64,000 nt of DNA from Vitreimonas sp. (GCA_035627515.1 DASPLQ010000012.1:778331-842330), one strand, 5' to 3'; counted from the first letter of the stretch, positions 9,574 through 40,092 are shown. Translations and numbers: made by a program. The notes: a model not told the origin generated them from the letters alone.

Positions 9574-9584
9574 CGAACACTCAC

Positions 9585-11354
9585 ATGCCAGATATTCATC
9601 ACTTCAAAAACCAACGCTTTGTAATCAAGATTGGTGGCGAATCGGGCCAAGGCGTAAACTCTATTGGTGAAGTTTTTGCCAAGGTTTTTAAGCGGAGTGG
9701 GTGGCACGTGTTTGGTTACCGTGAGTATCCCTCACTCATTAAAGGTGGTTACTCATGTTATCAGCTCGATGTGCAAGATCAGCCCCTCCGCAGTTCTTCC
9801 AGTCACTGTGACGTGTTAGTGTGTTTAAGCCGAGTCTCGCTCCATAAGTATCTGCCCACAGTCCGTCCCAATGGCATTGTGTTACATTCTTTGCCTCGCT
9901 TTGAGGTTTCAACAGAAGAGCAAACATACCTTGATCAGCATCACATAACCCTTCAGTATGTGCCGGCTGATAAGATTGCGATCGATAATGGTGGTAAACA
10001 CATTATGGCTAACACCGTTATGACTGGGATTGTTTCTCAGTTACTAGGTGTCGATTTAGAGCTGATTCGTTCACAAATTCGTGAAGAATTTTCTAAAAAA
10101 CCTCAATTACTTGATTTAAATATTCTTTGTTTAGAAAAGGGGTATGAATATGATTTGGAAATGTTACCGCGCGTATCTTTAGAGTTTGGCGTCACCGAGT
10201 CTGTCAGGGAGCAATTGTTGTTAACTGGCAATCATGCTATTGCCTTGGGAGCAGTCGCGGGTGGAGTGCGTGCTTATTATGCCTATCCCATGACTCCTTC
10301 CAGCTCCATTCTGAGTTATTTAGCTAATATTTATCACCAAACAGGGATGATGGTGAAACAAATTGAAGATGAAATTTCCGTAGCCCAGATGGCGATTGGT
10401 AGTATGTTTATGGGCACCCGAGCCTTAGTAGCCACATCGGGAGGTGGATATGACTTAATGACCGAATCGGTGTCGATGGCGGGCATTACCGAAATTCCTT
10501 TTGTGTGTGTTTTAGGTCAGCGGCCGGGGCCAGCAACAGGGTTGCCGACGTGGACGGCTGATGGTGATTTGAATTTAGCTATTTATGGAGGTCATGGTGA
10601 GTATGCTAAAGCGGTGTTAGCTGCCAGCGATCCGCAATCCTGTTATGACTTAGTCCAACGCGCGCTTAATTTGGCAGAAGTTTATCAAATACCGGTAATT
10701 GTGCTCACAGATAAAGAAATTGCTGAATCTTTATTTGCCATTGATGGCTTCCCGGCACCGTTACCAATTGAACGCAACTTAGTGGCTCAAGAGGAGTTAG
10801 CACATTTGACGCCTCATGATCGGTATGCTGATACGCCGAGCGGCGTTTCTAAACGCTGGTTGCCTGGTCAGGCTGAGGTCACTTATGACTCAAATAGCGA
10901 TGAACATCTAGCAGATGGTTCATTGACCGAAGAAGCTGCTCCCGTCAAAGTTATGTATGACAAACGAATGCGAAAAATGGCCACCATACTTGAAAATTTT
11001 CCTGAGCCAGTTATGTACGGAGATGATGATGCGGAGCTGACATTTGTAGGTTGGGGGAGTGTCAAAAATACTGTTTTGGATGTGATTGATATTCTTAAAG
11101 CCAGTAATCCAGCGTTGCGTTTAGGCTACCTTCACTACGAGTATATGTATCCACTCAAAACGGCTACTTTTAAGAAATTGACCCAGTCCCGCACTAAATT
11201 AGTCTTGATTGAAAATAACTACTTAGGTCAATTGGGTGCACTCTTAACTCAGGAAACTGGTTATCTTTTCCAATATAAACTGTTGAAATATGATGGTCGG
11301 CCGTTTTTCATTGAGGATGTCTTGAACTTTATTAGTCAGGAGGTAGCTCAATAA
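9585..11354 (+). CDS. 2-oxoacid:ferredoxin oxidoreductase, fused gamma/alpha subunit (KorA/OorA-like)
   Basis: N-terminal gamma-like domain (FVIKIGGESGQGVNSIGEVF) followed by an alpha domain (GNHAIALGAVAGGVRAYYAYPMTPSS). The start was moved to the ATG at 9585 (MPDIHHF) to avoid overlap with the flavodoxin gene. The track ORF starts at 9531. Confidence 0.8.
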   Translation: MPDIHHFKNQRFVIKIGGESGQGVNSIGEVFAKVFKRSGWHVFGYREYPSLIKGGYSCYQLDVQDQPLRSSSSHCDVLVCLSRVSLHKYLPTVRPNGIVLHSLPRFEVSTEEQTYLDQHHITLQYVPADKIAIDNGGKHIMANTVMTGIVSQLLGVDLELIRSQIREEFSKKPQLLDLNILCLEKGYEYDLEMLPRVSLEFGVTESVREQLLLTGNHAIALGAVAGGVRAYYAYPMTPSSSILSYLANIYHQTGMMVKQIEDEISVAQMAIGSMFMGTRALVATSGGGYDLMTESVSMAGITEIPFVCVLGQRPGPATGLPTWTADGDLNLAIYGGHGEYAKAVLAASDPQSCYDLVQRALNLAEVYQIPVIVLTDKEIAESLFAIDGFPAPLPIERNLVAQEELAHLTPHDRYADTPSGVSKRWLPGQAEVTYDSNSDEHLADGSLTEEAAPVKVMYDKRMRKMATILENFPEPVMYGDDDAELTFVGWGSVKNTVLDVIDILKASNPALRLGYLHYEYMYPLKTATFKKLTQSRTKLVLIENNYLGQLGALLTQETGYLFQYKLLKYDGRPFFIEDVLNFISQEVAQ

Positions 11355-21963: not shown

Positions 21964-22395
21964 ATGTCTCTCAAAACCCAACTTACCGATGATATGAAGC
22001 AAGCCATGCGCGATCGCAATTCAGTGAAATTGAACACGATTCGCTTCATGTTATCTGAACTCAAAAACTACGAAATCGATAATGGCGAGCAAGATGATGC
22101 TGGTGTCCAAAAATTAATTGCCAAACAAGTCAAGCAAATGAAAGACGCTATGGCTGAGTTTCAGCAAGGTGGCCGTGAAGATTTGGTTGCCGAAGAGCAA
22201 GCCAAAGTGGTATTTTTGGAAGCTTATTTACCTGCTCAAATGTCTGATGCTGATCTGGAAGCAATCGTCAAACGCGTCATTGAAGGTGCCAGTGATAAAT
22301 CAATGGGTGCCATCATGAACCAGGTCCGCGCCGAAGTGGGTGGGGCTGCTGACGGTGGAAAGATTGCCCAAATAGTCAAAGCTCACTTACAATAA
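21964..22395 (+). CDS. GatB/YqeY-domain protein
   Basis: Typical YqeY N-terminus (LTDDMKQAMRDRNSVKLNTIRFMLSELKNYEID). About 143 aa. Confidence 0.8.
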   Translation: MSLKTQLTDDMKQAMRDRNSVKLNTIRFMLSELKNYEIDNGEQDDAGVQKLIAKQVKQMKDAMAEFQQGGREDLVAEEQAKVVFLEAYLPAQMSDADLEAIVKRVIEGASDKSMGAIMNQVRAEVGGAADGGKIAQIVKAHLQ

Positions 22396-22399
22396 GAGC

Positions 22400-23044
22400 A
22401 TGAAGACCAAATCCATTGGTGAAATTCTTGGTGAGGAACGTGAGTTCCATCGATTAAGTTTAGCTGACCTTGCTAAGCGGACGCGCATTCGTTTGGAGTA
22501 CTTGCAGGCTTTGGAAAATAACGAGTTCGATAAGTTACCTTCCTCCACTTTTGTCAAAGGTTATATTCGCACCTACGGCCAGATTTTTGGGTTTGATTAT
22601 TTACCGCTGCTAGCTTTGCTACGGCGTGATTTTAAAGAAAGTGCTAAAGGCAAGCTAGTGCCACGGGAGTTTATCAAACCGGTCCTCAAAAAACGTCCTT
22701 TTTGGACCCCTATCACTGCCGCTATGGTCGTGCTTGGAACCTTGTTTTTGACCCTTATCACATATGTTCTAGTCCAGTGGTATCACTTCACTAAGCCCCC
22801 GCTGCTGGAAGTTTTCTCACCTGAAGCAGACGCTTTTGTCTCTGCCCAAGTGATGGTGGAAGGGAGAACAAATCCTGAAGCGGTAGTAGCGGTGAATGCT
22901 CAGCCAGTCTCATTACAACCAGATGGGAGTTTCCGGTATGAGCTGTACTTGCCGCGTGAAGGTATCACTACCATCACTGTGGAAGCCACTGATCGGCGTG
23001 GTAAAACTAATCTTCTCCAGCGGACGGTTTACGTAAAGTTCTAA
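22400..23044 (+). CDS. RodZ-like membrane protein with an N-terminal XRE-type HTH
   Basis: HTH region LSLADLAKRTRIRLEYLQALENNEFDKLPSSTFVKGYIRTY matches the RodZ N-terminus. Single TM, then an extracellular domain. Confidence 0.65.
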   Translation: MKTKSIGEILGEEREFHRLSLADLAKRTRIRLEYLQALENNEFDKLPSSTFVKGYIRTYGQIFGFDYLPLLALLRRDFKESAKGKLVPREFIKPVLKKRPFWTPITAAMVVLGTLFLTLITYVLVQWYHFTKPPLLEVFSPEADAFVSAQVMVEGRTNPEAVVAVNAQPVSLQPDGSFRYELYLPREGITTITVEATDRRGKTNLLQRTVYVKF

Positions 23045-23690: not shown

Positions 23691-23737
23691 ACTTTTACTT
23701 GCTTTATAAAGGTTTTTTCTGAGATACTGATGGGATG
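23691..23737 (+). promoter_or_regulatory. conserved promoter cassette copy 1. Extended -10 (TGaGATACT) ending 6 nt before the ATG predicts a leaderless transcript.
   Basis: ACTTTTaCTTGCTTTaTAaAGGtTTTTTCTGAGATACTGaTGggATG. 35 of 43 positions identical to copy 2 (25634..25680). Confidence 0.45.
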
Positions 23738-25627
23738 TTTGTTGTTGAAGATGATTTAGCACATTTAGCCGAGACTCAGCCTGCTACTCCAAAAGTTGTC
23801 GACCCTACTCCGGTTCACAACGATACCGCTCCCACGGAGCCAGTTCTAAAAAAATCCCACATCCACAGTGACAAGGAACTTCGAGATGGAATTCAAGACG
23901 AACTTGATGCCTTACACCAAGATCCAGAGGAGTTATTAGCAGAGTTATTGCCTAGCGCTAGGCCGAGGGTGGAGAAATTAGCAGCTTTTTTAGCAGATAA
24001 ATTATTCAACAACTTTGCTGTCGGCGATAACGATTTAATAGGTTTGCTAGCTCAAGAGCCAGAGAGAATAATGAACTTCTATGGAAAGAAAGATGATGAA
24101 GTTGACGCGGAGGATTTACGACTCAAATTAACAACAGATTACCCCACTTTAGCTTTTGATTACGAACTAAATAGTGTGGGGATTGAGAGTGTTTTAACTA
24201 AACTTGTCGGGGTTATGAAGTCGCATCCTGAAGCTTTTGGGTATACCTTTCACGAATTAGAGTGGGCGACAACGTTACTCTATAAAAAGTTAGAAGAAAG
24301 ATATGCTGCCGGCCAGATGACAATTGCACAAAAGAAAGTAGGTGAAGTAGTGTTACTTTACCTTTTCACTGATAGCATTTGGTTTAAAGATGAGGTTTTT
24401 CTGAGTGATTGGCGAAATACGATCCCAGTAGGTCTTGACCACCCTGTTAGATACAATGCCGTACGTCACTCATTGGCAGTTTCTATCGCCGATTTTTGTA
24501 GGCAACATTTAGACATGGCACAAAACAAAATCCTTAGCGAGGAGGAGGAAGATAAATTATTTAAGGAGTTTAAAGAGCGTTTTCAAGGTCATAACTACGC
24601 TCAAGTATTCGGGGCGATCCAAAAAGTTTGGTATTATTTTGAGGCTACCACTAATGATAGACGGGCAGCGACCATTTTACATTCTTTAGCTTCCGAGCTA
24701 GCTTGGTATGCTAAGCCCAATAAAGGGGAAGTGTGGGATAAACTAAAAAAGACCAAGATCAAGTTAACTCCTGAACAGAAGCGGTATTATGCTGAGTTAT
24801 CTAAGGCATTCTTTGATTCAGACGATTGGCACCATCTTCGCCCAGAACAGCCTCCACCCCAGTGGTTATTCAAAATAGTCAAAGGATTATTTATTGGTTT
24901 ATCGATTGGCTCTGTTCTCACCATCGGTGCTAAAGAAAATCCACAAAAAACCAACGAGATAGTTAACACTGCTGAAAATTATTATCAGCTCAGCGCTGAA
25001 GCCCTAGCTGAGTTTTTGCCGGATAGGTTTGGTGGGCACGATGTAGATCGATCAAGTGCTGAAGCCACCGCTGTGAGTTCCAACGAACAAAATAAGCCTG
25101 GTGCTACTAACTTTACAGAGCAAGTTAACACGCAACCGGAGACTAGGCCTACACAAAGTGTCCCCACCCAACCTGCTCAGCCTCCACCCGAGAGCCCACC
25201 AGTAGTGTCGGCGACCCCAGAAGTAGTTTTGCCCACTACTGGTTGGCATACTTTCGTTGGCATTGATTTACAAGGTTGGCAAACAGTCAAAGAGTGGGAA
25301 AACGGTGGTTTTGGTTGGCGCGCGCCGGTGATCGAGCTAACAGAGTTTTTCTTGCGTGAAGCTCACACTAACCCCCAGGGAGCTGAGTATTCATATGGTT
25401 TTAATCCTCATGCCAGTGATGCCGAAACTATTGAGTGGGCAGTTCGCGCTGCTCAGGCAGTGCAGAATCAACATCCTGAACTTGCAGGTACAGTTACACC
25501 GGGTAACCTTGATGAAACAATCACTCCCATCATAGCTGGCATCGAGGGTAGCGCCACGGCTATTACACCGGTGCCAGTGACCAATTACACCGGCCTTGTG
25601 GATCGCTTAACCCAACGCTTGCCATAA
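23735..25627 (+). CDS. large hypothetical bitopic membrane protein (630 aa)
   Basis: Single TM near the middle (LFKIVKGLFIGLSIGSVLTIG). C-terminal half is Pro/Thr/Gln-rich and then globular. No known domain. Confidence 0.5.
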   Translation: MFVVEDDLAHLAETQPATPKVVDPTPVHNDTAPTEPVLKKSHIHSDKELRDGIQDELDALHQDPEELLAELLPSARPRVEKLAAFLADKLFNNFAVGDNDLIGLLAQEPERIMNFYGKKDDEVDAEDLRLKLTTDYPTLAFDYELNSVGIESVLTKLVGVMKSHPEAFGYTFHELEWATTLLYKKLEERYAAGQMTIAQKKVGEVVLLYLFTDSIWFKDEVFLSDWRNTIPVGLDHPVRYNAVRHSLAVSIADFCRQHLDMAQNKILSEEEEDKLFKEFKERFQGHNYAQVFGAIQKVWYYFEATTNDRRAATILHSLASELAWYAKPNKGEVWDKLKKTKIKLTPEQKRYYAELSKAFFDSDDWHHLRPEQPPPQWLFKIVKGLFIGLSIGSVLTIGAKENPQKTNEIVNTAENYYQLSAEALAEFLPDRFGGHDVDRSSAEATAVSSNEQNKPGATNFTEQVNTQPETRPTQSVPTQPAQPPPESPPVVSATPEVVLPTTGWHTFVGIDLQGWQTVKEWENGGFGWRAPVIELTEFFLREAHTNPQGAEYSYGFNPHASDAETIEWAVRAAQAVQNQHPELAGTVTPGNLDETITPIIAGIEGSATAITPVPVTNYTGLVDRLTQRLP

Positions 25628-25633
25628 ATTCTG

Positions 25634-25680
25634 ATTGTTGCTTGCGTGTCAAAGGGTTTTTCTGAGATACTGGTGAAATG
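25634..25680 (+). promoter_or_regulatory. conserved promoter cassette copy 2 (leaderless-type, extended -10 TGaGATACT 6 nt before the ATG)
   Basis: TTGCTTGCgTgtcAAAGGgTTTTTCTGAGATACTGgTGaaATG. Confidence 0.45.
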
Positions 25681-27504
25681 CATGAAGCTCCGATAACTGC
25701 TGTTAACTTGCCACTTTCTACGGCCATTAGAACAGATGGTGTTCTGAGTCCTCAACAAGAGGATACTTTGAAGTATCGAAATAGAGCCGAACAAAAAGCA
25801 GAAGATTTGCTAAATAACATTATCGGGGGAAGAGACTTAACAGTAGTAATGGGGTATGTTACTACTGAACCTAAGGCTGTTAATGAAGTTGTTCCTGATT
25901 TTTCAATTCTATTTAATACTGAAGCCACAGGAACTTTAACATCTGCGGTGCCTGCAGTTTTATCTCATGACACGATTGTAACTGAAGGCGAAACCCGCCT
26001 GCACAACGGTTTGTATCATCAACTTTCTACTGAGAATCATAGTTTTCAAGGTTTAAAAATTAATCAAATAGGTGATGAATATGTCACTAAACTTAGTTCA
26101 CTTTTAATTGATAAATATGGGGTGAACTATACAGCGGAAGATGTAATTAGAGCACTTGATAAGCTCTTCACTAAAGTTTCTGGCGATTCAGATTTGGCTG
26201 AGAAGGCTCGAACTCAACTTAAAGCAGTCTTAGAAGCAACTAAAGCTAAACTCAAACATCGATTCGCCACTGTTTCAATTGAGAATAAAACAGCTCCAGT
26301 GGAGAGACTCGAGTTGCTTAAGCCTGGAAATAGGGCTGTCAGAATTGAACTCACGCACTTTTGTTTAACTGAAGGATTTCAAGTTGATAACTCGGAAGCT
26401 CAGCGATCAAAGTTTGTGGCCAAATTTTTAGCTGAATTTGATGGTTACCAACCTGGAGTTTTGCGACACTACTTAGCTATTCTTTACAAAGAGTTATCTG
26501 TTTTGCCCAGTGATATGGGAGTGGTAAAACAAAGTATTGATCTTCTTAACACAGCAATTCTGCGCCAACAGGTCGATAATAAGAACTGGAAGCATCAATC
26601 AGATTCTTCCAAGTTAGGTGTTGTTTTTAGTAAGTATCGATTTTATCGCGATTTCCAGCGTGAGGTAGCTGAGGCCTTAAAAAACAAGCAAAAAGCCACC
26701 GAGGTTGAAAAGCAGAAGGCGCTGCTTGAAAAAACAGCTGTAAGTGCTGAAATAAGAAAACCTGTTCTTTCACGAAAAATGCTTTGGGGTGGGGTCGTTT
26801 TCTTATTGGTTGGGGCCTGTGGTTTAGTTGAGGCATTTAACCCTGGTGCATTGACTCAAGCGCGAGCTAACTTTAATGATAATAATGAAAACTCATCTTC
26901 AACTTCGATGGTCAGTGAGTTGTTTGCAGATTTGTTAGCAGCAGAAAAACATATCGAGCATATTTTGAGTGATGAATATGTTCCAGCCTTAGTGAATGAT
27001 CCATATAAAGAAATGCGTGCCGCTGCGGCTTCGCCGATAGTACCTGAAGCGTCAGTAACTCGTAGTGAAGGGATGCAAGAGTTGCATCAACTGAGTCAAG
27101 ATTTAGCTCTAGCATCTTTGCGCGATCAGGTCACAGGGGGGTCGCCTGAACGCCAACGCTTAGTTGATTACGTACGTTGGACGATCAATATGTCATATAA
27201 TCGGCCTGGAGATTTTGCGCGGCTAGTGTCTATTACGGGGGTAAGTTGGAATCCAGAAAAGTTGGAAACATATTTGCGGATAGCTACTCGGATTGAGAAG
27301 TATCTGCCTGATTTACATCAACAGGTTATAACTGGTCAATCTGACATTTTAGGAGCAGTTCAGGCAAATATGGATGAGTTCCCAGAAGGTTTTGATGCTC
27401 GTGCAGTTGAGCATGACAATACCACTCCAGATGCTTCAATTTCAGGAGAAATTGATACAGAATTACTAGATAAACTGCAAACTCTGACTAAGATTGCTGG
27501 CTAA
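25678..27504 (+). CDS. large hypothetical bitopic membrane protein (608 aa), same architecture as the preceding gene
   Basis: Single central TM (MLWGGVVFLLVGACGLV). No known domain. Shares the upstream cassette with 23735..25627. Confidence 0.5.
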   Translation: MHEAPITAVNLPLSTAIRTDGVLSPQQEDTLKYRNRAEQKAEDLLNNIIGGRDLTVVMGYVTTEPKAVNEVVPDFSILFNTEATGTLTSAVPAVLSHDTIVTEGETRLHNGLYHQLSTENHSFQGLKINQIGDEYVTKLSSLLIDKYGVNYTAEDVIRALDKLFTKVSGDSDLAEKARTQLKAVLEATKAKLKHRFATVSIENKTAPVERLELLKPGNRAVRIELTHFCLTEGFQVDNSEAQRSKFVAKFLAEFDGYQPGVLRHYLAILYKELSVLPSDMGVVKQSIDLLNTAILRQQVDNKNWKHQSDSSKLGVVFSKYRFYRDFQREVAEALKNKQKATEVEKQKALLEKTAVSAEIRKPVLSRKMLWGGVVFLLVGACGLVEAFNPGALTQARANFNDNNENSSSTSMVSELFADLLAAEKHIEHILSDEYVPALVNDPYKEMRAAAASPIVPEASVTRSEGMQELHQLSQDLALASLRDQVTGGSPERQRLVDYVRWTINMSYNRPGDFARLVSITGVSWNPEKLETYLRIATRIEKYLPDLHQQVITGQSDILGAVQANMDEFPEGFDARAVEHDNTTPDASISGEIDTELLDKLQTLTKIAG

Positions 27505-27506
27505 AA

Positions 27507-27535
27507 TTGACAAACCTCCAGCCACCACTTACAAT
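27507..27535 (+). promoter_or_regulatory. consensus sigma70-like promoter of the alaS leader
   Basis: TTGACA -17 nt- TACAAT, immediately after the upstream stop codon. Confidence 0.6.
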
Positions 27536-27541
27536 TCAAGC

Positions 27542-27766
27542 AACAACTTAACAACAGCGATGAATGGAAGAATTTTGAGTTCATTTGAATTCAGAAGGGC
27601 CGCCCAGGAGCTGCCAGCGAAGAGCTGAGCCGGAAGTTTACAAAGTTCACCGTCAACAGAACTAGAGCCCTATGCCGAAATGGTTTAGGGGAACCAAGGT
27701 GGTACCACGAGAAGCCTCGTCCTTGTCCAGAACTAGAGTAGTTCAGGATGAAGACGAGGTTTTTTT
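27542..27766 (+). ncRNA. candidate T-box riboswitch leader controlling alaS
   Basis: About 260-nt leader. T-box-like sequence AACCAAGGUGGUACCACGAG (27690..27711; consensus AAUUAGGGUGGNACCGCG). It contains UGGU, which is complementary to an NCCA 3' end with an A discriminator base, as in tRNA-Ala. It overlaps the 5' arm of a long terminator hairpin (27715..27733 / 27741..27759) that is followed by UUUUUUU (27760..27766). Confidence 0.55.
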
Positions 27767-27803
27767 ATTGGCATAAAGAAAATTACTTAACCCGAAAGGT
27801 CAT

Positions 27804-29684
27804 ATGACACCGAATCAATTACGCGACAAGTATTTACAGTACTTTGAAAAACAAGGTCATGCTATTGTGCCGTCTTCACCCCTGGTGCCTGAAAATGACC
27901 CAACTACCTTATTTACAGGCTCAGGCATGCAGCCGATGGTGCCCTATCTATTAGGTCAGCCTCATCCCAAAGGCACTCGAATTGTAGATTCACAGAAATG
28001 TTTCCGGTCGCAAGACATTGAAGAAGTGGGTGACAATCGCCACACCACATTTTTTGAAATGTTGGGTAATTGGTCGCTGGGTGATTACTTTAAAAAAGAC
28101 CAGTTGCGATGGTTTTTTACTTTTTTGACTGACGAAGTGGGCTTAGATCCGCATCGTATTTTTGTGACGGTTTTCCGTGGCAGTGAAGAATTAGATATTC
28201 CTCGTGATAGCGAATCTGTTGCTGTCTGGAAGGAGTTGTTTGCAGAGAAGGGTATCGCAGCTACCGATATCGATTTTGCTGATCGCGATGGCATGCAAGA
28301 CGGCCGTATTTTTTACTACGAAGAAAAGAAAAACTGGTGGTCTCGAGCAGGTGTGCCCGCGAATATGCCGGCTGGTGAACCAGGGGGTCCCGATAGTGAA
28401 GTTTTTTATGACTTTGGCGCTGAGTTACATCTTCACGAAAACTCAACTTTCAAAACTGAACCCTGTCATGTGAATTGTGATTGCGGCCGCTTTTTGGAAA
28501 TTGGGAACTCAGTATTCATGCAGTACCAGAAACAGCCCGATGGTAGTTTCAACGAACTGCCACAGAAGAATGTTGATTTTGGCGGCGGTTTAGAACGCAT
28601 TCTAGCTGCTCATAATCAAGATGGAGATGTTTTTAACACTGAGCTATTTAGCCCGATTATGACCCAGCTCTCACAAGTCAGTGGCCAAGAATATCGCACT
28701 GCGGATGACAAGGTCAAACGTTCTTTTCGAGTGATTGCTGACCATCTGAAAGCAGCGACGATGTTAGCAGCCGATGGCGTATACCCAGCCAACAAAGAAC
28801 AAGGTTATTTTGCTCGGCGCTTGGTACGGCGCGCAGTGCGTTATGGCAGAATGATTGGCATTACGCAACCATTTGTGAGCCAAGTTGTGCAGGTCGTAGG
28901 TGAAATATATGAGCAGGCTTATCCCGAAGTTTTTGGTCAGTTAGAAAAAATTAAAACCGGCCTCAGTGATGAAGAACAAAAATTTAATAAAACCTTGGAA
29001 AAAGGTTTGCGAGAGATCGAAAAAATTGGTGAGCTGACGGGTGAGTCTGCCTTCAAGCTCTATGAAACCTATGGTTTTCCCTTGGAGTTGACAGAGGAAA
29101 TCGCTCAGGAGCGCGGCCAAATCGTGGATCGCGAAGCTTTTCGTTTGGCGTTCAATGAACACAAAGATAAATCACGGACCGCTTCGGCTGGCAAGTTCAA
29201 AGGTGGTCTGCAAGATCACTCAGAAGTGACGATTAAGTACCATACAGCTACACATTTGCTTCATGCTGCGTTGCGGCAGGTATTGGGTACCCATGTCCAA
29301 CAAAAAGGCTCTAATATTACGGCCGAGCGGTTACGATTTGATTTTTCTCACCAGCAGGCTATGACGGAACAAGAAAAGCAGCAGGTGGAACAACTCGTAA
29401 ATAACTGGATCAAGCAAGATTTGTCAGTCACGCGCCAAACGATGCTCAAACAAGAGGCACTCAATTCAGGCGCCATTGCTTTCTTTTTAGAAAAGTATCC
29501 CGATGAAGTTTCGGTCTATACAGTTGGCCAGGATCCTACTGGTAAACAAGGTGAGGGCTGGATTTCTAAAGAGTTTTGTGGAGGGCCACACGTAGAGCAC
29601 ACTGGGCAAATTGGACCGATCAAGCTTACAAAAGAACAAGCTACCTCAGCTGGCGTACGGCGGGTGTATATGGAGTTGGCATAA
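27804..29684 (+). CDS. alaS: alanyl-tRNA synthetase, short form lacking the C-terminal C-Ala domain (626 aa)
   Basis: Class II catalytic core (FTGSGMQP, GDNRHTTFFEMLGNWSLGDYFK). Editing-domain zinc motifs HTATHLLHAALRQ and CGGPHV are present. The protein ends ~250 aa short of canonical bacterial AlaRS. Confidence 0.85.
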   Translation: MTPNQLRDKYLQYFEKQGHAIVPSSPLVPENDPTTLFTGSGMQPMVPYLLGQPHPKGTRIVDSQKCFRSQDIEEVGDNRHTTFFEMLGNWSLGDYFKKDQLRWFFTFLTDEVGLDPHRIFVTVFRGSEELDIPRDSESVAVWKELFAEKGIAATDIDFADRDGMQDGRIFYYEEKKNWWSRAGVPANMPAGEPGGPDSEVFYDFGAELHLHENSTFKTEPCHVNCDCGRFLEIGNSVFMQYQKQPDGSFNELPQKNVDFGGGLERILAAHNQDGDVFNTELFSPIMTQLSQVSGQEYRTADDKVKRSFRVIADHLKAATMLAADGVYPANKEQGYFARRLVRRAVRYGRMIGITQPFVSQVVQVVGEIYEQAYPEVFGQLEKIKTGLSDEEQKFNKTLEKGLREIEKIGELTGESAFKLYETYGFPLELTEEIAQERGQIVDREAFRLAFNEHKDKSRTASAGKFKGGLQDHSEVTIKYHTATHLLHAALRQVLGTHVQQKGSNITAERLRFDFSHQQAMTEQEKQQVEQLVNNWIKQDLSVTRQTMLKQEALNSGAIAFFLEKYPDEVSVYTVGQDPTGKQGEGWISKEFCGGPHVEHTGQIGPIKLTKEQATSAGVRRVYMELA

Positions 29685-29764: not shown

Positions 29765-31603
29765 ATGTTTGCTCAAGGTGGTATCCCCGAAGAACATAAA
29801 GAAAAAAGTGAGTTACTCAAACTACCTGCTAGTGGGCATCGGTTGGATAACTTACCACAGCTGTTAAAAGAGCAAAAGTCTGCTGCGGAGTTGGCACAAA
29901 AGACTCATGAGGTAGTTGATGGATTAATTAATCCATCTTTAACTGCGCTTGCAACAGAAGCCTCTAAGAATGTTGAGGGTAATCCTGCTAACGCTTCGAA
30001 AAATCCGGTGGCAACAGAGATAAACGCGCTCTTACAGAAAGATTCTCCTTTACAGCTGCTAAAGGAGACAGCCGATCTCCAATTAGAACAAACGAACTCT
30101 ACATTAACCACCTTAGCTAATGATGCGATGACAGCACTGGGTTTTTTCCAGAATCGTGGTTTTTATGACAAATTTTCATCTCAGTATGATGTGGGAGGGA
30201 TCTTAGATGATCTTAAGACACCCGGAAAGACTCGAGTAGATTGGCTCAAAGACAATGCCGAGAAAATCGCCCATGCTTTAAAAGATGCGTGCGCTAAACA
30301 TTTTGAAATAGCTGACGGTGTTTTAGATCTCTATGCTCTTATTTTCCCGGGAAATCAAAAAATTATAAGATTACAGAGAATGCATCCTAACGGGAATGCT
30401 CCTGGTGAATTATGGTCAAGCGAAGACCTGCAAAGATTTGATAGAGACATGAAGGCAACTCAGCAAGATTTGAAGCCCAAGCTAGAAGAAATGGTAAGAA
30501 CCTGGCAGAAATTGGGTCACAATCCTTCACAAATTATGAACTTTTTAAATGGAGACTACAATCAAATGAGATTTGATGTGGAGTCAGTAAAAGGGCAACT
30601 GACAACTTTAATGCGAGACGTTGAGGCTCAACGACAGGCAGCTGAGGCGACTACGGCTGTTGGTCTACTGAGGTTCCTTGAGCAAGGGAATGATGCCGTA
30701 ATCAGTGTGGCAGCAGAGTCAGGTCTACAAAAAATACTCAAGCCTGACCAATATCAGAACTTAATTGATATTTTAAGTAACAACGCTCAAGCTAATGGTG
30801 GTGATAAAGTTTCACTCCTGCAGCTAGCCGCCTTTGAAGCTCATGGGGTTTCAACACAACAACTTATTAAAGATATTTTTCGAAGAAATCCGGCTCTAAT
30901 TATCAAACTTTCAGAGCAACTACAAGATTGGAGTCAAGTTGATGGTAGAAATCTCAGATTTGCCCAGCAGGTGAGTGAAAAATACTTGACTGGACTTAAA
31001 GCCAGAGCTGATAAAACTAAATCGCCAAGTGAAGCGTTGAGCTCTCTCAAGCAATATCTGACAGAAATGAGTCAGCCGGCGATCAAAGTCAAGGAAACAA
31101 GGGAGCAGGTGGAAAAGTCTATTGAGCGCTTTGATAACGATAAATTGCAAAACAGAGATGCCGCTGATACCTATGACGATTTGGCTAAGCTGGCATGTAA
31201 GTTATTGGGTATGGGTGAGCAAGAGACTTTACTTAATATGAACCCGCTTCTCGAAGCTTTTACGAGTAGAAATTTGCGCAGAGCGCTTTTAGCCCACTTG
31301 CCAGAAGGGTCCTCGGCCAGAGCTGAATATGCAAATTTCACCATCCTGTTGCCAATTGATGGGAACAGAAAGATGGAAATCAGTATTACAAGTGCTCTGA
31401 ATATCGCTTATATGAGCTTGAAAGCCCACCATCCAGATGGAGTGGGTACAGTGGGAGTGATGCTGGGTTATCAATTTAATGATAAAGGCGACAGGCCAAA
31501 AGTAACGCGAACCGCCTCAAGCCCAGTCTTTGGTTTGCAGGATGTGACTAAGAATCTTTTAATGATTAATGACAATGTCAAAAAAGTAGAAATTCCTAAG
31601 TAA
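29765..31603 (+). CDS. large hypothetical soluble protein (612 aa)
   Basis: No TM and no known motifs. Helical, Gln/Leu-rich N-terminal region. Confidence 0.5.
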   Translation: MFAQGGIPEEHKEKSELLKLPASGHRLDNLPQLLKEQKSAAELAQKTHEVVDGLINPSLTALATEASKNVEGNPANASKNPVATEINALLQKDSPLQLLKETADLQLEQTNSTLTTLANDAMTALGFFQNRGFYDKFSSQYDVGGILDDLKTPGKTRVDWLKDNAEKIAHALKDACAKHFEIADGVLDLYALIFPGNQKIIRLQRMHPNGNAPGELWSSEDLQRFDRDMKATQQDLKPKLEEMVRTWQKLGHNPSQIMNFLNGDYNQMRFDVESVKGQLTTLMRDVEAQRQAAEATTAVGLLRFLEQGNDAVISVAAESGLQKILKPDQYQNLIDILSNNAQANGGDKVSLLQLAAFEAHGVSTQQLIKDIFRRNPALIIKLSEQLQDWSQVDGRNLRFAQQVSEKYLTGLKARADKTKSPSEALSSLKQYLTEMSQPAIKVKETREQVEKSIERFDNDKLQNRDAADTYDDLAKLACKLLGMGEQETLLNMNPLLEAFTSRNLRRALLAHLPEGSSARAEYANFTILLPIDGNRKMEISITSALNIAYMSLKAHHPDGVGTVGVMLGYQFNDKGDRPKVTRTASSPVFGLQDVTKNLLMINDNVKKVEIPK

Positions 31604-31690: not shown

Positions 31691-33997
31691 ATGGAGTTAC
31701 CAAACCTGTTTTCGTCACCGGCTGGGCCTGATAAATTGTTGTTGGCAGTTGTGCTGACTGGGAGCACTGTTCAAGCAGCGTTGTGGAAGGTGAAAGATGG
31801 TGAGATCGTAGTGGTCCATACCTCAAGTGTTCTGGAATACACCGATGATGAGAACTGCTTAGTGGTGACTGATGAGAGCTTGCAAGAGTTGGGCAAAGAA
31901 TCTGAAGATGTTGAGGAGGTGGTGTTTGGCTTTGCACCGAGTTGGGTTGATGCTCAAGGTATTGTTGATGTTCATAAACCATTGTTGAAGAAATTAACTA
32001 AACAGCTCAGCCTCAAAGCGGTGGGTTTTGTGGTAATTGATGAAGCTTTATTTCAAGAACTAAAAGAGCATGAGCCTTTTTTAAGTGCATTTTTGATTGT
32101 GGCGGCTCAGCAAGAACTGCGAGTGTCGGTCATTCATCAAGGTAACTTAGGTTTTACGATTGAAGTGGGCAAATCTGATGATGCCGCTGCCGATGTGATT
32201 GAGGCTTTAGCGCGCGCCACAGCCGAGGGCAAGAAGCTACCTCCAGTTTTACCGGCCAAGATGTTATTAGCTTCAGCTGAGCTGGACGAAAGTGAAGTTA
32301 CCGATATCCAACAAAGTTTAATTGCACACGATTGGGTGGCATCGCATGGGTTGTTACATCCTCCCACCGTCGATGTCTTATCCACGACAAGCGTGGTAGA
32401 AGCGATCACCCGTCAAGGTGGGCGAGCAGTTGCTGAAGTTCAAGGGCTGATTAAACGAGCAGCCAGTAGTACAACGCCCACTCCACAAGTGCCTCAGCTG
32501 GAGAGTGACGTAGTACCTGTAGCAGGTGAAGTTGTTGCCGACGAATTAGGTTTCGAGCCCATGGTGCTCGAAGCCCAACCCAATGAGCCGCAGCCTGCCA
32601 CGCCTAGTTTGCCAGAAGCCGAAGAATATGCCGTAGAGCAAGCAAATGTGGTACTCCCTAATCATGCTCAATCTAGCTTTGGTGTCCCCATTGGTTTGCA
32701 CCACTTGGAAAAGTCTAATTCTGGAACTTCTCCAGCGTTCCGCACTCATGAGGATGAAGAGTATGCATTTGAAACTGAACAACCTGCCAGTCACAGTCAA
32801 GCAAGTTCACCGCGTCAGCGACTTGGAACTTTTATTCACGCTCATCGCTTATTTATTACCTTGGGATTTATTGGGGGAGTTTTAGCATTACTTCTGATTG
32901 CCTTTGGTGCCATTGCGATGAGTACGCAAGCTCAGGTGGCAATCACACTCAATAGTAAGCCACTCTCGCAAGAAGTTCCCGTGACTTTAGATGCCAAGGC
33001 AACTGCTGTTGATGCCGCTAACCGAGTCCTACCTGCTAAAGCCGTAACTCAGGAGCTGAGTGAGACTAAGTCCCTGCCCACTACCGGGATTAAATTAGTG
33101 GGGGACAAGGCTAAAGGCACAGTCACTTTGATCAACAAAACTGAGTCATCTAAATCATTTGCTGCTGGGACAGTGCTGACTGCTGGCAAGCTCAAGTTTG
33201 TTTTAGATAAAGAAGTGACCGTGGCATCTGCCAGTGTCAGTAAGCGTGGTAGTGAAGGTGAAAACAAAACCTATGGTAAAGCTGATGGGGCAGCGACGGC
33301 TCAAGCTATCGGTACTGAGAGCAATGTTGGTCAAAATGTAGAGTTTACGGTCGGTGACTTTTCAGGGAATACGTACTCAGCGATCGCCAAGAGTGCTTTC
33401 AGCGGCGGAGCTAGCCGTGAAGCTCGTGCAGTCAGTGAAAAGGATCGTGAAAAAATTCTAGCCGATCTGAAGACTGAGCTGATTAAAAAAGCCGAAGCTG
33501 CTTTTCAAGAACAATCAGGAAATGGCAGTTATACTGTCCCCACCGGCAAAGTCTCGGTCAAAACCTCTGAGTACAGCGGTAAAGCCGGTGAGGAAGCAGA
33601 TACCCTGACGCTGAAAGCGACGATGGTAGTGGAGGGTCTAAGTTATCAAGTAGGAGATTTACAACCGCTGGCTAAAGAGATCTTAGCTACCCAACTGCCG
33701 AGTGAGTATGAGCTAAGTGATGAAGCCCCTCAGGTGTTATCTACCCCTTCGCAAACCGCCAGCAATTCCGGCAAAGTGGTGTTACAGATGAACATGAGCA
33801 CTGTTGCCTATCCTAAGATCGATGTTGCAGCTTGGCTGAATCAGCTGCAAGCTAAACAACTAACTGAAGCCGAGAGTGAGCTCAAAACTAAAGCAGAAGT
33901 AAAAAGTGTCGAGATTACTCTTCAGCCCAAGATTGCTGAATGGGTTTGGCCACGGTTACCGAGTAAAGCTGAAAGAATTAAGGTACAAACACAATGA
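31691..33997 (+). CDS. large bitopic membrane protein (768 aa), translationally coupled to the sortase gene
   Basis: About 380-aa cytoplasmic N-domain, one TM (LFITLGFIGGVLALLLIAFGAIAM), and a ~360-aa extracellular C-domain rich in Thr/Ser/Lys/Gly. ATGA overlap with the downstream sortase gene. Confidence 0.5.
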   Translation: MELPNLFSSPAGPDKLLLAVVLTGSTVQAALWKVKDGEIVVVHTSSVLEYTDDENCLVVTDESLQELGKESEDVEEVVFGFAPSWVDAQGIVDVHKPLLKKLTKQLSLKAVGFVVIDEALFQELKEHEPFLSAFLIVAAQQELRVSVIHQGNLGFTIEVGKSDDAAADVIEALARATAEGKKLPPVLPAKMLLASAELDESEVTDIQQSLIAHDWVASHGLLHPPTVDVLSTTSVVEAITRQGGRAVAEVQGLIKRAASSTTPTPQVPQLESDVVPVAGEVVADELGFEPMVLEAQPNEPQPATPSLPEAEEYAVEQANVVLPNHAQSSFGVPIGLHHLEKSNSGTSPAFRTHEDEEYAFETEQPASHSQASSPRQRLGTFIHAHRLFITLGFIGGVLALLLIAFGAIAMSTQAQVAITLNSKPLSQEVPVTLDAKATAVDAANRVLPAKAVTQELSETKSLPTTGIKLVGDKAKGTVTLINKTESSKSFAAGTVLTAGKLKFVLDKEVTVASASVSKRGSEGENKTYGKADGAATAQAIGTESNVGQNVEFTVGDFSGNTYSAIAKSAFSGGASREARAVSEKDREKILADLKTELIKKAEAAFQEQSGNGSYTVPTGKVSVKTSEYSGKAGEEADTLTLKATMVVEGLSYQVGDLQPLAKEILATQLPSEYELSDEAPQVLSTPSQTASNSGKVVLQMNMSTVAYPKIDVAAWLNQLQAKQLTEAESELKTKAEVKSVEITLQPKIAEWVWPRLPSKAERIKVQTQ

Positions 33998-36438: not shown

Positions 36439-36612
36439 ACCCCCTATTCTCAAAAACGTAGCAATATAATTCCTGGAAAATTCTCTTGCTGACAGACATT
36501 GCCATATTCAGCACCAAGTAAATCAGCACAGGGCACGGTTGTGGCCTGGCTTTTTGTGTGCCTGTTAGTAAGAGAGTTTTCCACAGTGAAAATACGGATA
36601 AAAGGAGTCTTC

Positions 36613-39600
36613 ATGCCGACACAGCAACGCGCCTATTGGGGGAAACAACATCGCAACCTTCCCGAGTTAAATTTAGTTAGGTTACAACTACAAAGCTATG
36701 AGCGCTTTTTAAGTAAAGGCATCGGCGAGGCGCTAGCAGAGGTAAATGGTGAAAAAGGTATTGAAGATTTTACCGGCAAAAACTGGCGAATTACTTTTGG
36801 TGAGTATCGCTTTGGTAAGCCTAAATACACCTTAGCCCAAGCTAAGCGTAAGGCTGTCAGCTACGACGTGCCTCTCTACGTAGAAGCTACATTACTCAAT
36901 AAAAAAACTGGCGAAGAGCAAACCCAGGAAGTGTTTTTAGGTGATATTCCTAAGATGACCCCTGTGGGTACCTTTGTGATCAATGGTATTGAGCGGGCAG
37001 TGGTGACGCAGTTAGTGCGCTCTCCAGGTATTTTCTTTTCAGGTGATGAAGATCCAGCGACCGGTCGGATGCTCTACCGGGCTGAACTGCGTCCTAATCG
37101 TGGCTCATGGTTAGAAATTGGTGTTGGTCGTCGCGATGTGATTACAGTTAAGATCGATCGCCGCCGTAAGATGCCAGTTACCGTTTTGTTACGGGCTATG
37201 GGCTATGGCACCGATGAAGAATTATTAGATTTATTCAAAGATCTCAAAGATAAAGATGAATCTGATTTGATTGCCAAAACTATCGAAAAAGATCCTACCA
37301 AGAGCCAAGCAGAAGCTTTAATTGAGCTTTACGAAAAAATGCGCCCTGGTGAGCCAGCCGTGTTAGATAACGCTAAGGAATACTTAAAACAATTATTCTT
37401 CGATCCTCGTCGTTATGATCTGGATGAAGTCGGTCGTTATAAGCTTAACCGTCGCTTGAAGGTCAACGCTGATCAAAAAACCACTGTCCTCACTACTGAA
37501 GACGCCGTGGCTGCTGTTCGTTACTTGATCAAATTACAAAATGGCGAAGGTAAAACTGATGACATCGATCACTTGAGTAACCGCCGCGTTCGCCGGATTG
37601 GTGAGCTCGTCCAAACCAATGCTTTGCGGATTGGTTTAATTCGCTTAGAGCGTTCCATCCGTGAAAAAATGTCTTTGACCAAAACAGATGAAGTTTTAAC
37701 TCCAGCTGCTTTAGTCAATGCTCGGCCGTTGATCGCTACTATCTCTGAATTTTTCCGCCGTAACCGCTTATCCACTATCTTAGATCAAACTAACCCGTTA
37801 TCAGAAATTGATAACCTGCGTCGGTTGTCAGTGATGGGTAGTGGTGGTGTGACTCGTGAGCGCGCCTCATTCTCAATGCGTGACATCAACGCGTCTCAAT
37901 ATTCACGGATTGACCCCGTCCGGTCTCCAGAAGGTCCAAACATCGGTTTGGTTACCTACTTAGCTTTATACGCTCAAGTTAATGATTTTGGTTTCTTAGA
38001 ATCTCCTTATCACAAAGTGGAGAACGTCAAAGGCAAGATGAAGATTTCAGATCAAATCGTATATCTGGCCGCTGATGATGAAGAAGAATACAAAATTACC
38101 CATGCCGGTGTCGAAGTCAGTGATGATGATGTCATTACCCAAGCTTGGGTGCCAATGCGGTCTATGAACCAATTCATCGAAGGCCCAGTAGAAGACGTGC
38201 AGTATATTGACGTCGTTCCTCGCCAAGTGATTGGTACTTCTGCCTCTTTAATTCCCTTTATCTCTCATGACGAAGCTAACCGGGCTTTGATGGGTACGCA
38301 CATGCAATGTCAGGCTGTGCCCTTGATCAAACCTCAAGCTCCGATTGTAGGTACCGGTATGGAAGAAGCCGTAGCTACTGCCATGGGACGCACCGTTCGG
38401 GCTCGCCACAGTGGTGTGGTGAAGTATGTGGACGCTCAGCAAATCGTGATTGATCTGGATACTAAAGAAGTGGCCAAAGCCAAAGATTTAGCTGCCAGTG
38501 ATGAAAATGCGATGGTGACTGTCGAAGGCAGTACTGAGGTCTATCATATCGAAAAGTTTGTCCGTACTTCACAAAGTACTTCATACTCTCAAAAACCAAT
38601 GGTTAGTCTTGGTCAAAAAATCAAAGCTGGTGACATCATTATTGATGGCCCATCTGCTGATGGTGGTGAGTTAGCCTTGGGTGCTAACTTGATCATTGCT
38701 TACACTTCATTTGAAGGATTAGGGTATGAAGACGCGATCGTCATTTCTGATCGTTTAGTCAAAGAAGATGTCTTGACCTCAGTCCAAATCAGTGAGCACC
38801 GCGCTCAAGTGATGGACACCAAGTTAGGTCCTGAAGAATTGACTAACGATATTCCTAATGTTTCTGAGGCTTACTTAAGTAACTTGACGCCTGATGGCAT
38901 TATCCGGGTTGGTTCAGTTGTGGGTGCTGGTGACATCCTGGTGGGTAAGATTGCCCCCAAAGGTGAAACCGAGTTGACTCCAGAAGAGCGGTTATTGCGC
39001 GCTATCTTTGGTGAGAAATCACGCGAAGTTCGTGACACCTCCCTCCGTGTGCCTCACGGTGAAGGTGGTACTGTCATCGAAGTCCAAGTACTCGATCGTA
39101 CTTTAGGTGATGAACTTGACCCTGGTACTAATATGGAAGTGATTGTCAAAGTCGCTCAAACTCGGAAGATCACTGTCGGTGACAAGGTAGCCGGTCGTCA
39201 TGGTAACAAGGGTGTTATCTCGAAGATTGTGCCTCAAGCTGACATGCCTCATCTCGAAGATGGGACTCCAGTCGATATCATCATTTCACCACTGTCAGTC
39301 TTGGCTCGTATGAACTTAGGTCAGCTGTTAGAAGCTCACTTGGGTTGGGCAGCCAGTAAATTAGGCTATAAAGTGGCGATCCCAGCTTTTGAAGAAATTA
39401 ATGAAAGCAAAATTTGGGAAGAGCTCGAGAGAGCTGGTTTACCACGCGATGGTAAAGCTCAATTAATCGATGGCCGCACCGGCTTACCATTTAGTGAGAA
39501 GACCGTGGTTGGTATCGGTTATATCTTGAAGCTGATCCACATGGTGGAAGACAAGACTCATGCTCGGTCCACTGGTCCATACTCGTTAGTCACACAACAA

Positions 39601-40092
39601 CCTTTGGGTGGTAAAGCTCAAATGGGTGGTCAACGGTTGGGAGAAATGGAAGTCTGGGCTTTGGAAGCACACCGAGCTGCGCATACCCTCCAAGAAATGT
39701 TGACGATTAAATCAGATGACGTGATGGGTCGGGCTAAAGCCTTCGAAGCTATCGTTAAAGGTACGCCGATTCCCGCTCCAACAGTGCCTGAGGCCTTTAA
39801 AGTGATGATGCGCGAGTTGAACTCACTTGGTTTGGAAGTTGTGGCTCACGAAGTCAAAGAAGTTGATGACGAAGTCGCCGCTCCAGTTGGAGTAGCTGCT
39901 TTGGTTGCTGATGATCAAGTAATTACTGATGATCAGGCTCAGCTCGTAGCTGATGATGGGATGATCACTACCGATGATCCCGCTGCTCAAAGCGATGATT
40001 CAGATGACGTCAGTACCGATGACGCCGACGACTTGGAGGCGGTTGATGAACCCTCCGAAGCCGATTTAGAAGATGTTAGTGACGAACAATAG
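36613..40092 (+). CDS. rpoB: DNA-directed RNA polymerase beta subunit, with a ~85-aa Asp-rich C-terminal tail
   Basis: Universal RpoB motifs throughout. The start was moved to the ATG at 36613 (MPTQQRAYWG), which has an AAGGAG SD 6 nt upstream. The track ORF extends to 36499 through a hydrophobic non-conserved region. The C-terminus is ...DDQVITDDQAQLVADDGMITTDDPAAQSDDSDDVSTDDADD... Confidence 0.95.
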   Translation: MPTQQRAYWGKQHRNLPELNLVRLQLQSYERFLSKGIGEALAEVNGEKGIEDFTGKNWRITFGEYRFGKPKYTLAQAKRKAVSYDVPLYVEATLLNKKTGEEQTQEVFLGDIPKMTPVGTFVINGIERAVVTQLVRSPGIFFSGDEDPATGRMLYRAELRPNRGSWLEIGVGRRDVITVKIDRRRKMPVTVLLRAMGYGTDEELLDLFKDLKDKDESDLIAKTIEKDPTKSQAEALIELYEKMRPGEPAVLDNAKEYLKQLFFDPRRYDLDEVGRYKLNRRLKVNADQKTTVLTTEDAVAAVRYLIKLQNGEGKTDDIDHLSNRRVRRIGELVQTNALRIGLIRLERSIREKMSLTKTDEVLTPAALVNARPLIATISEFFRRNRLSTILDQTNPLSEIDNLRRLSVMGSGGVTRERASFSMRDINASQYSRIDPVRSPEGPNIGLVTYLALYAQVNDFGFLESPYHKVENVKGKMKISDQIVYLAADDEEEYKITHAGVEVSDDDVITQAWVPMRSMNQFIEGPVEDVQYIDVVPRQVIGTSASLIPFISHDEANRALMGTHMQCQAVPLIKPQAPIVGTGMEEAVATAMGRTVRARHSGVVKYVDAQQIVIDLDTKEVAKAKDLAASDENAMVTVEGSTEVYHIEKFVRTSQSTSYSQKPMVSLGQKIKAGDIIIDGPSADGGELALGANLIIAYTSFEGLGYEDAIVISDRLVKEDVLTSVQISEHRAQVMDTKLGPEELTNDIPNVSEAYLSNLTPDGIIRVGSVVGAGDILVGKIAPKGETELTPEERLLRAIFGEKSREVRDTSLRVPHGEGGTVIEVQVLDRTLGDELDPGTNMEVIVKVAQTRKITVGDKVAGRHGNKGVISKIVPQADMPHLEDGTPVDIIISPLSVLARMNLGQLLEAHLGWAASKLGYKVAIPAFEEINESKIWEELERAGLPRDGKAQLIDGRTGLPFSEKTVVGIGYILKLIHMVEDKTHARSTGPYSLVTQQPLGGKAQMGGQRLGEMEVWALEAHRAAHTLQEMLTIKSDDVMGRAKAFEAIVKGTPIPAPTVPEAFKVMMRELNSLGLEVVAHEVKEVDDEVAAPVGVAALVADDQVITDDQAQLVADDGMITTDDPAAQSDDSDDVSTDDADDLEAVDEPSEADLEDVSDEQ

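Follow-up and report, generated by a model that had tools for sequence, protein, structure and literature searches.

A predicted T-box riboswitch with a platform-less Stem I and an intrinsic terminator ahead of alaS in an apparent Microgenomates-like CPR lineage

The alaS locus and its match to the T-box family

The window, that is the whole stretch of 64,000 nucleotides analysed here, carries on its plus strand a promoter, a leader and the gene alaS, which encodes an AlaRS. The two features on either side of the leader are:

27507..27535, plus strand: sigma-70-type promoter (TTGACA 27507-27512, 17-nt spacer, TACAAT 27530-27535)
27804-29684, plus strand: alaS, 626 aa, with an SD-like GAAAGG at 27794-99

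The promoter, which an earlier note on this DNA had proposed as TTGACA-17-TACAAT, was found in place; it agrees with the consensus at 11 of 12 positions and is the top site of the region scanned (26500-29000), and a related locus, L170 (loci other than the window are given as L and a number), has TTGACC-17-TACAAT at the equivalent position. Transcription would start near 27542, about 7 nt past TACAAT. The AlaRS shows a match to PF01411 (E 1e-124) and a tRNA_SAD match at residues 569-622, and it stops at the tRNA_SAD motif without a C-Ala domain, in agreement with what had been said of a truncated alaS.

Judged by protein sequence, the lineage is CPR and Microgenomates-like because all close named homologs of RpoB and AlaRS are Woesebacteria, Pacebacteria or 'Patescibacteria group', and the CPR-like origin suggested before is thereby borne out. 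The label 'Vitreimonas sp.', carried by a contig whose proteins match RpoB and AlaRS of the window with 100% identity, is at odds with these homologs, Vitreimonas being an alphaproteobacterial genus.

In a permissive cmscan, the Rfam T-box family RF00230 covered 27551-27727 end to end (model positions 1-219) with 55.3 bits and an E-value of 2.4e-9 for the 64-kb window or 1.5e-11 for a 401-nt stretch, and it was the sole Rfam family at E <= 0.01 in the 64-kb window. At gathering thresholds no family, tRNA included, was found in the whole 64-kb window. The Rfam scan that had been advised as a check came out positive on E-value and negative on score, 55.3 bits being lower than the curated gathering threshold of 93 because of deletions in Stem I (the tRNA-elbow platform) and Stem II. 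None of the ten alaS T-boxes found in this work (31.6-81 bits) reaches that threshold, and the canonical alaS T-boxes of relatives with a long Stem I also score just 55.7-81 bits on RF00230. Folding of the whole leader gave z = -3.96 relative to shuffles.

The full-length match and its E-value mean that the resemblance to a T-box is not due to chance. Together with the homologous leaders of relatives, in which compensatory changes are seen (see below), they sustain the proposal of a T-box leader upstream of alaS, and it is near certain that the alaS leader is a genuine T-box riboswitch.

Fold of the leader and its expression platform

The 5' part of the leader folds into a short Stem I, whose elements are listed below.

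27556..27612, plus strand: Stem I, short form (from the cmscan alignment, segmentation and pair table)
AGC 27556-58 / GCU 27610-12, plus strand: K-turn stem, with strands GAUGAA and GGA
UGG(A) 27565-68 / (C)CCA 27603-06, plus strand: helix under the specifier loop
5' AGAA 27569-72 and 3' GG-GCC-G 27597-27602, plus strand: specifier loop
27573-82 / 27587-96, plus strand: apical Stem I hairpin, 10 bp, loop AUUU
27599..27602, plus strand: specifier GCC (alanine codon) and its 3' purine G27602 (from the model position and relatives)

The K-turn, AGC-GAUGAA...GGA-GCU, agrees with the model consensus gCgaUGA...gGAGc and is kept in all four full-length members of the family described below. Just 24 nt (10 bp and AUUU) stand above the specifier loop, and in the cmscan alignment 3 nt stand in for 46 model positions in distal Stem I. 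Model alignment and segmentation found no AG bulge (AGAGA), distal loop or AGAGA/UGxRA T-loops in Stem I of the window; since both the AGAGA bulge and the distal loop are missing, the IDTM, or tRNA-elbow platform, is absent, as it also is from Stem I of L165, L166 and L170. The S-turn motif AGUA/GAA is not present in the specifier loop of the window, where AGAA/GG is found in its place. Of the Stem I features advised as another check, the specifier loop and the K-turn were found and the distal platform was not.

At the aligned specifier position GCC is the only triplet common to the alaS T-boxes found (10/10). The nucleotides 5' of it differ (GG, AG, GA, UC, AC) and the one 3' of it is always a purine, and GCC, an alanine codon, suits the regulated gene alaS. 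Another triplet, GCU at about 27624, had been offered as a possible Ala specifier. It is present at 27624-27626 in GAAGAGCUGA, but belongs to the 3' arm of Stem II, where GCUG 27624-27627 pairs with CAGC 27615-27618, and the model puts the specifier at GCC 27599-27601; GCU was consequently rejected.

Downstream of Stem I, the following elements connect it to the antiterminator:

27613..27630, plus strand: minimal Stem II (GC and CAGC 27613-18, GAAGA 27619-23, GCUG 27624-27, bulged A27628, GC 27629-30)
CGG 27631-33 / CCG 27650-52, plus strand: Stem IIA (from the pair table)
GUUC 27645-48 with GAAC 27659-62, plus strand: IIB pseudoknot (from compensatory changes)
27663..27695, plus strand: Stem III region, with CCCUA 27668-72 / UAGGG 27686-90

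No loop-E/S-turn was found in Stem II of the window, which consists of a 6-bp stem and the GAAGA pentaloop with no internal loop. A mini Stem II of like form with the pentaloop GAUGA occurs in L031 and L052, and Stem II of L166 and L170 contains an internal loop, GAA / ..AA, that differs from AGUA/GAA in the register supported by covariation. Among relatives the changes in Stem II are exchanges between A-U and U-A and between G-C and U-A or C-G, and the IIB pairing takes the forms GUUC/GAAC, UCUC/GAGA and ACUC/GAGU across three species, while that of L166 is GCUC/GAGA with one non-standard G-A cell. The purine-rich flanks of Stem III, UAGAG and GAA, match the RRRxG...AA motif (PMC7583486) approximately only.

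The 3' part of the leader holds the T-box motif and two alternative hairpins.

27696..27724, plus strand: antiterminator, AAGG (UGGUACC) ACGAG-AAGC-CUCGU CCUU, -5.7 kcal/mol
AAGG 27696-99 / CCUU 27721-24, plus strand: antiterminator helix A1
27700-06, plus strand: T-box bulge of 7 nt, UGGUACC, whose UGGU is complementary to the tRNA-Ala 3' ACCA
ACGAG 27707-11 / CUCGU 27716-20, plus strand: antiterminator helix A2
27714..27766, plus strand: intrinsic terminator, a 20-bp hairpin at 27714-27760 with U7 at 27760-27766, -26.5 kcal/mol

The T-box string AACCAAGGUGGUACCACGAG, which had been noted as a match to the T-box consensus that includes UGGU, lies at 27692-27711 and places UGGU in the bulge of the antiterminator. 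In the folding, the terminator hairpin includes the pairs G27714-U27760 and C27715-G27759 and has two internal mismatches and a GAG loop; a simple terminator scan did not pick up the hairpin at 27714-27760, probably because of these internal mismatches. The two folds are mutually exclusive because the 5' arm of the terminator reuses 27716-27724, in accordance with the claim made for this locus of a terminator with U7 that competes with the antiterminator. Both -5.7 and -26.5 kcal/mol fall in the antiterminator/terminator energy ranges of TBDB. Beyond the U-run, at a distance of 28-38 nt, come the SD-like GAAAGG (27794-99) and the ATG, neither of which is paired in the fold, and this makes the expression platform a terminator and not an SD sequestrator. 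A hairpin and U-run of equivalent kind are found in L165, L166, L170 and L172, the hairpin being followed by U7 in L166 and L170 and by AUUUUUU (six U's) in L165.

Homologous leaders and covariation

The distribution of the leader was first considered in a broad survey of 160 alaS loci, 80 from GTDB species genomes and 80 from metagenome contigs, whose AlaRS are 45-70% identical to that of the window and which are mostly CPR. A T-box was present in only 5 of the 160 (L031, L052, L076, L141 and L148), always with a long Stem I; L031 and L052 are MAGs labelled Saccharibacteria, and L076, L141 and L148 are GC-rich contigs of Chloroflexi type. None of the 160 surveyed loci had a short-Stem-I leader, and in the ten closest of them no T-box was found even at permissive thresholds. 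Motif matches in L052 (at 6129), L068 and L111 were discarded as they lie inside coding sequence, and one in L140 was discarded as weak and antisense.

Closer relatives, with AlaRS identical to that of the window at 72-78% by BLASTP and 72-79% in a MAFFT alignment, were obtained from a large protein search and gene context. Leaders homologous to that of the window were found in three other CPR species, represented by L165, L166/L167 and L170/L171, whose AlaRS are 75-77% identical to the window's. All of them have the 5' AACAACAGC...UGGAAGAA, a short Stem I hairpin (8-12 bp) and GCC-A, followed by the pseudoknot, the discriminator core and the terminator with its U-run as in the window. Scores of 31.6, 44.5 and 50.9 bits were obtained for them on RF00230, with the same deletion in Stem I. 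A further locus, L172, lies at a contig end and keeps the 3' part of the leader, with both antiterminator helices preserved through sequence changes (GAGG/CCUC and GUUCUC/GAGAGC); it was missed by the antiterminator model R1 and by Rfam RF00230, and is by its sequence a probable member of this leader family.

In eight close relatives no leader was found upstream of alaS, with gaps of 55-115 nt in the leaderless L161/162, L163, L164, L168 and L169, which means that the T-box is dispensable in the clade. By AlaRS similarity, loci with the leader fall among loci without it, as shown by the leader-bearing P0129, which is 80-81% identical to the leaderless P0123 and P0133, and alaS loci with and without the leader are syntenic. 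This interleaving and synteny point to a leader that would be ancestral and repeatedly lost.

Covariation was assessed in an alignment of the four full-length members (the window, L165, L166 and L170), from which an excerpt was registered by hand to the structure. In this excerpt, whose hand registration favours the structure and which MAFFT gave back without gaps, standard pairs occupy 95.6% of 160 cells, compared with 35-45% after a shift of the 3' partners by 1-3 columns. Changes on both sides of the pair are seen in 15 of 40 pairs; the mean in shuffles was 7.7, and 15 was reached in none of 500. The covarying pairs are distributed over the Stem I hairpin (7/8), Stem III (4/4), Stem II (2/6) and IIB (2/4), and GCC, UGGUACC, the K-turn, IIA, A1 and A2 are invariant in the four members. 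Since the short Stem I hairpin stays paired through compensatory changes, the alignment argues that the truncated form of Stem I would be under selection rather than debris.

Relation to known T-box systems and the proposed response to tRNA-Ala

T-boxes are divided into four classes (PMC10482949): Class I has a long Stem I with IDTM and a Stem II S-turn, Class II (the glyQS type) a long Stem I without Stem II, Class III a short Stem I with the specifier in the apical loop and a required Stem II, and Class IV an intermediate Stem I without IDTM and with the specifier at a helix junction. Termination is 'generally' the mode of control in Classes I and II and translation 'mostly' that in Classes III and IV, for which actinobacterial ileS leaders are the examples, and the classes without IDTM are stated to depend on the Stem II S-turn (PMC10482949). 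According to another review (PMC7583486, sec. 6.2) translational T-boxes can do without the IDTM, but it is essential in transcriptional ones, where it speeds the capture of tRNA ahead of the arrival of polymerase at the terminator.

The nearest systems to the leader of the window are Class IV (Actinomyces odontolyticus ileS) and Class III (Nocardia farcinica / Mycobacterium ileS). With Class IV it has in common an intermediate Stem I without IDTM and a specifier at the junction beneath a short upper helix, and with both classes the K-turn, Stem II, the IIA/B pseudoknot, Stem III and the UGGN bulge core. On the other hand, Class III and IV leaders belong to actinobacterial ileS and act mostly by RBS sequestration, whereas the leader of the window belongs to a CPR alaS and has a GCC specifier and a terminator with U7; they also need the Stem II S-turn, of which no canonical form is present in the window. 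The sequestrator over the Shine-Dalgarno that is found in most Class III and IV leaders does not occur here, the terminator with its U7 ending 28 nt before GAAAGG. The predicted architecture is Class-IV-like, and the expression platform is a predicted terminator.

Among T-boxes of the same gene, those of B. subtilis and C. acetobutylicum alaS (PMC4695836) resemble the leader of the window in the UGGU bulge and the terminator/antiterminator switch, but have a GCU specifier and a long Stem I with the platform where the window has GCC and no platform. Erosion of Stem II is also known from them, the Stem II loop E being absent from B. subtilis alaS and the whole of Stem II and IIA/B from C. acetobutylicum alaS (PMC4695836). 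Class I (B. subtilis tyrS) shares with the window the order of elements, the K-turn, the specifier with its 3' purine, IIA/B, Stem III, the T-box sequence and the terminator, and differs in that the window has about 43 distal Stem I model positions deleted and non-canonical S-turns in the specifier loop and Stem II. Class II glyQS has, like the window, terminator control and a specifier-anticodon duplex of G and C only (GGC:GCC in glyQS, GCC:GGC in the window), by which the literature explains why glyQS dispenses with Stem II; it has a long Stem I with IDTM and no Stem II or pseudoknot, whereas the window has a mini Stem II and a pseudoknot and no IDTM. Finally, the five surveyed loci with a long Stem I have the GCC specifier, the UGGUACC bulge and the terminator in common with the window, but they keep AGAGA and the distal loop, reach 55.7-81 bits on RF00230 and show a G-C pair in the 4-position helix below the specifier where the window shows an A-C opposition.

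No published report of a T-box riboswitch in Patescibacteria, CPR or Saccharibacteria was found in the searchable literature, and no terminator-type T-box naturally without the platform was found there either, an isolated earlier listing being possible and the 'mostly' of PMC10482949 allowing for exceptions. TBDB ran its class II model on class I matches with a truncated Stem I, and platform-less sequences may therefore sit unremarked in databases.

What is observed is the sequence and structure of the leader, the way it is conserved and covaries in relatives, and the agreement of the specifier with the regulated gene; the tRNA binding, the isoacceptor and the regulatory outcome are predicted from these. 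By default, the 20-bp terminator at 27714-27760 with its U7 would form and RNA polymerase would be halted ahead of alaS. In uncharged tRNA-Ala, the anticodon (GGC by prediction) would pair with GCC 27599-27601, the specifier in the internal loop of Stem I, and the free 3' ACCA with UGGU 27700-27703 of the T-box bulge, as is the case in the alaS T-boxes studied, which pair UGGU with the ACCA end of a tRNA-Ala whose discriminator is A73 (PMC4695836). This pairing would stabilise the weak antiterminator at 27696-27724, deny 27716-27724 to the terminator and allow alaS to be transcribed, while charged tRNA-Ala would be unable to make the UGGU contact. It is likely, with good confidence, that the T-box is a transcription attenuator of alaS which senses uncharged tRNA-Ala. 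Efficient co-transcriptional capture of the tRNA by the leader of the window is not assured because it has neither the IDTM nor the Stem II S-turn; our leading guess, by analogy with glyQS, is that the all-G/C codon-anticodon pairing would compensate for the missing elbow contact. The fuller reading, in which a conserved minimal T-box of terminator type would sense tRNA-Ala co-transcriptionally without the elbow platform or the Stem II S-turn, is one to which we give about even chances.

A rather improbable alternative is that the leader is the eroding relic of a former full-length T-box, with no useful response to tRNA and acting as a leaky constitutive attenuator that is being lost. The absence of distal Stem I and of the Stem II S-turn from the window would agree with it, as these are the elements called essential in the respective classes (PMC7583486, PMC10482949), and so would the outright loss of the leader from many close relatives. 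Neutral decay, however, is expected to strike the specifier and the bulge first, and GCC and UGGUACC are invariant together with the K-turn; moreover, the short form recurs in four species with about 25% difference between their AlaRS, and its Stem I hairpin, like the pseudoknot and Stem III, is upheld by compensatory changes, which indicate selection on the whole fold. Much less probable is a translational T-box resembling the actinobacterial Class III/IV ileS leaders, with the 3' hairpin serving chiefly as an RBS sequestrator. Although an IDTM-less Stem I is tied 'mostly' to translational control (PMC10482949), U7 follows directly on the hairpin in the window and its GAAAGG and ATG are left unpaired 28-38 nt beyond, and the hairpins of L166 and L170 also run into U7 and that of L165 into AUUUUUU. 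We give next to no credence to a tRNA-independent element, since a leader-peptide attenuator, for which a 22-codon ORF from the K-turn AUG (27560-27628) with GCC GCC inside might speak, is excluded by the lack of conservation of the small ORFs (no SD in the window, other length and sequence in L166 and L170, absent in L165), and a chance T-box look-alike beside an ordinary terminator is contradicted by the RF00230 E-value of 2.4e-9 and the covarying homologs.

In textbooks, T-box riboswitches serve as an example of RNA-RNA recognition. If the minimal terminator-type T-box does sense tRNA-Ala, anticodon pairing and capture of the 3' end would be enough for a kinetic, transcription-coupled decision. 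Help may come from the GCC:GGC duplex, made up of G and C alone, from the purine pentaloop, from slow transcription in CPR or from some further factor. Joined as they are to a classical terminator, the platform-less Stem I and the reduced Stem II would offer a direct test of the rule that the platform is needed for termination, and, at about 170 nt, a compact scaffold for engineered tRNA-responsive switches. CPR bacteria obtain amino acids from hosts and, to our knowledge, little is known of their gene regulation; T-box regulation would become part of CPR biology, with aminoacyl-tRNA synthetase control of riboswitch type in these bacteria. The patchy spread of alaS T-boxes over CPR, Saccharibacteria and contigs of Chloroflexi type also bears on whether T-boxes are ancestral or were transferred.

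As for the tRNA itself, ARAGORN found no tRNA-Ala(GGC) among 172 loci, the only tRNA-Ala genes being CGC (L095) and UGC (L153), and there are no tRNA genes in the 64-kb window and no tRNA-Ala in the family loci. The two bearers of tRNA-Ala, L095 and L153, are more distant loci than the T-box family. The tRNA-Ala that adjoins alaS in the CPR locus L095 has G3-U70 and A73. The commonest Ala codons in the window are GCU and GCC, the pair read by a GGC anticodon.

Structural details of the short leaders

At the top of the helix lying just below the specifier (UGGA/CCCA; window positions 27565-27568 and 27603-27606), an A was found to oppose a C, and this opposition is kept in all four short-Stem-I leaders, namely those of the window and of its candidate phyla radiation (CPR) relatives L165, L166 and L170. 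In the long-Stem-I alaS T-boxes, on the other hand, a G-C pair occupies this place. Opposed in this way, the two bases may make the specifier loop wider, or they may pair as an A+-C wobble.

A minimal Stem II of 6 bp, with one bulged base and a pentaloop cap, is common to the window leader (27613-27630) and to the leaders of the Saccharibacteria-labelled loci L031 and L052, although the pentaloop reads GAAGA in the former and GAUGA in the latter two. In L166 and L170, by comparison, Stem II is longer than that of the window and carries an internal loop. The purine-rich Stem II loop might serve as a substitute for the purine string of the S-turn, the Stem II motif missing from the window leader.

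The window leader also contains a 22-codon ORF (MNGRILSSFEFRRAAQELPAKS) at 27560-27628, whose start is the AUG of the GAUGA motif of the K-turn. Its counterparts differ in L166 and L170, and L165 has none, so the ORF probably exists only as a side effect of RNA motif conservation.

Long-Stem-I T-boxes and tRNA-Ala genes at other alaS loci

Canonical long-Stem-I T-boxes with a GCC specifier precede alaS at five loci.

Position of each T-box (locus coordinates)
L031, 2724-2985: Saccharibacteria-labelled MAG
L052, 2712-2980: Saccharibacteria-labelled MAG
L076, 2685-2975: Chloroflexi-type contig
L141, 26-365: Chloroflexi-type contig
L148, 331-620: Chloroflexi-type contig

All five score below the Rfam gathering threshold (55.7-81 against 93 bits) and would therefore be missed by standard annotation.

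At two more distant loci, a tRNA-Ala gene was found beside alaS. In L095, a CPR-type contig, a tRNA-Ala(CGC) gene (1401-1475) with G3-U70 and A73 lies about 25 nt upstream of alaS (start 1501), and in L153, a further CPR-type contig, a tRNA-Ala(UGC) gene (2010-2085) lies just downstream. At loci lacking a T-box, such physical linkage may be an alternative solution.

Gene content of the window and taxonomic labels

Nowhere in the 64 kb (1-64000) did any Rfam family, tRNA and rRNA included, reach the gathering threshold. The window also contains rpoB/rpoC and the genes for EF-G and EF-Tu, together with ORFs taken in the earlier note for ribosomal-protein genes, a putative assignment.

Further protein-coding features of the window
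1412-3403: S8 peptidase
5941-7962: PAS/GAF histidine kinase
9531-11354: PFOR-like protein
23735-25627: large ORF, 630 aa, no Pfam match
25678-27504: large ORF, 608 aa, no Pfam match
29765-31603: 612-aa ORF after alaS, no Pfam match
31691-33997: 768-aa ORF following the 612-aa ORF, no Pfam match

The stretch that separates alaS from the syntenic YqeY and HTH_25/Glucodextran_B genes (21964-23044) holds the 630-aa and 608-aa ORFs; in relatives, just two small ORFs are present there. After alaS, most relatives examined carry a gene of about 700-780 aa without Pfam match.

The name Vitreimonas sp., that of an alphaproteobacterial genus, is the label on the proteins of the source record (a 1.41-Mb contig). 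The close homologs of RpoB (36499-40092) and AlaRS (27804-29684) are all CPR (Woesebacteria, Pacebacteria, Patescibacteria), and several TPA MAGs with a CPR-type AlaRS also carry Pseudomonadales or Gammaproteobacteria labels. Such labels are probably taxonomic errors in the public databases.
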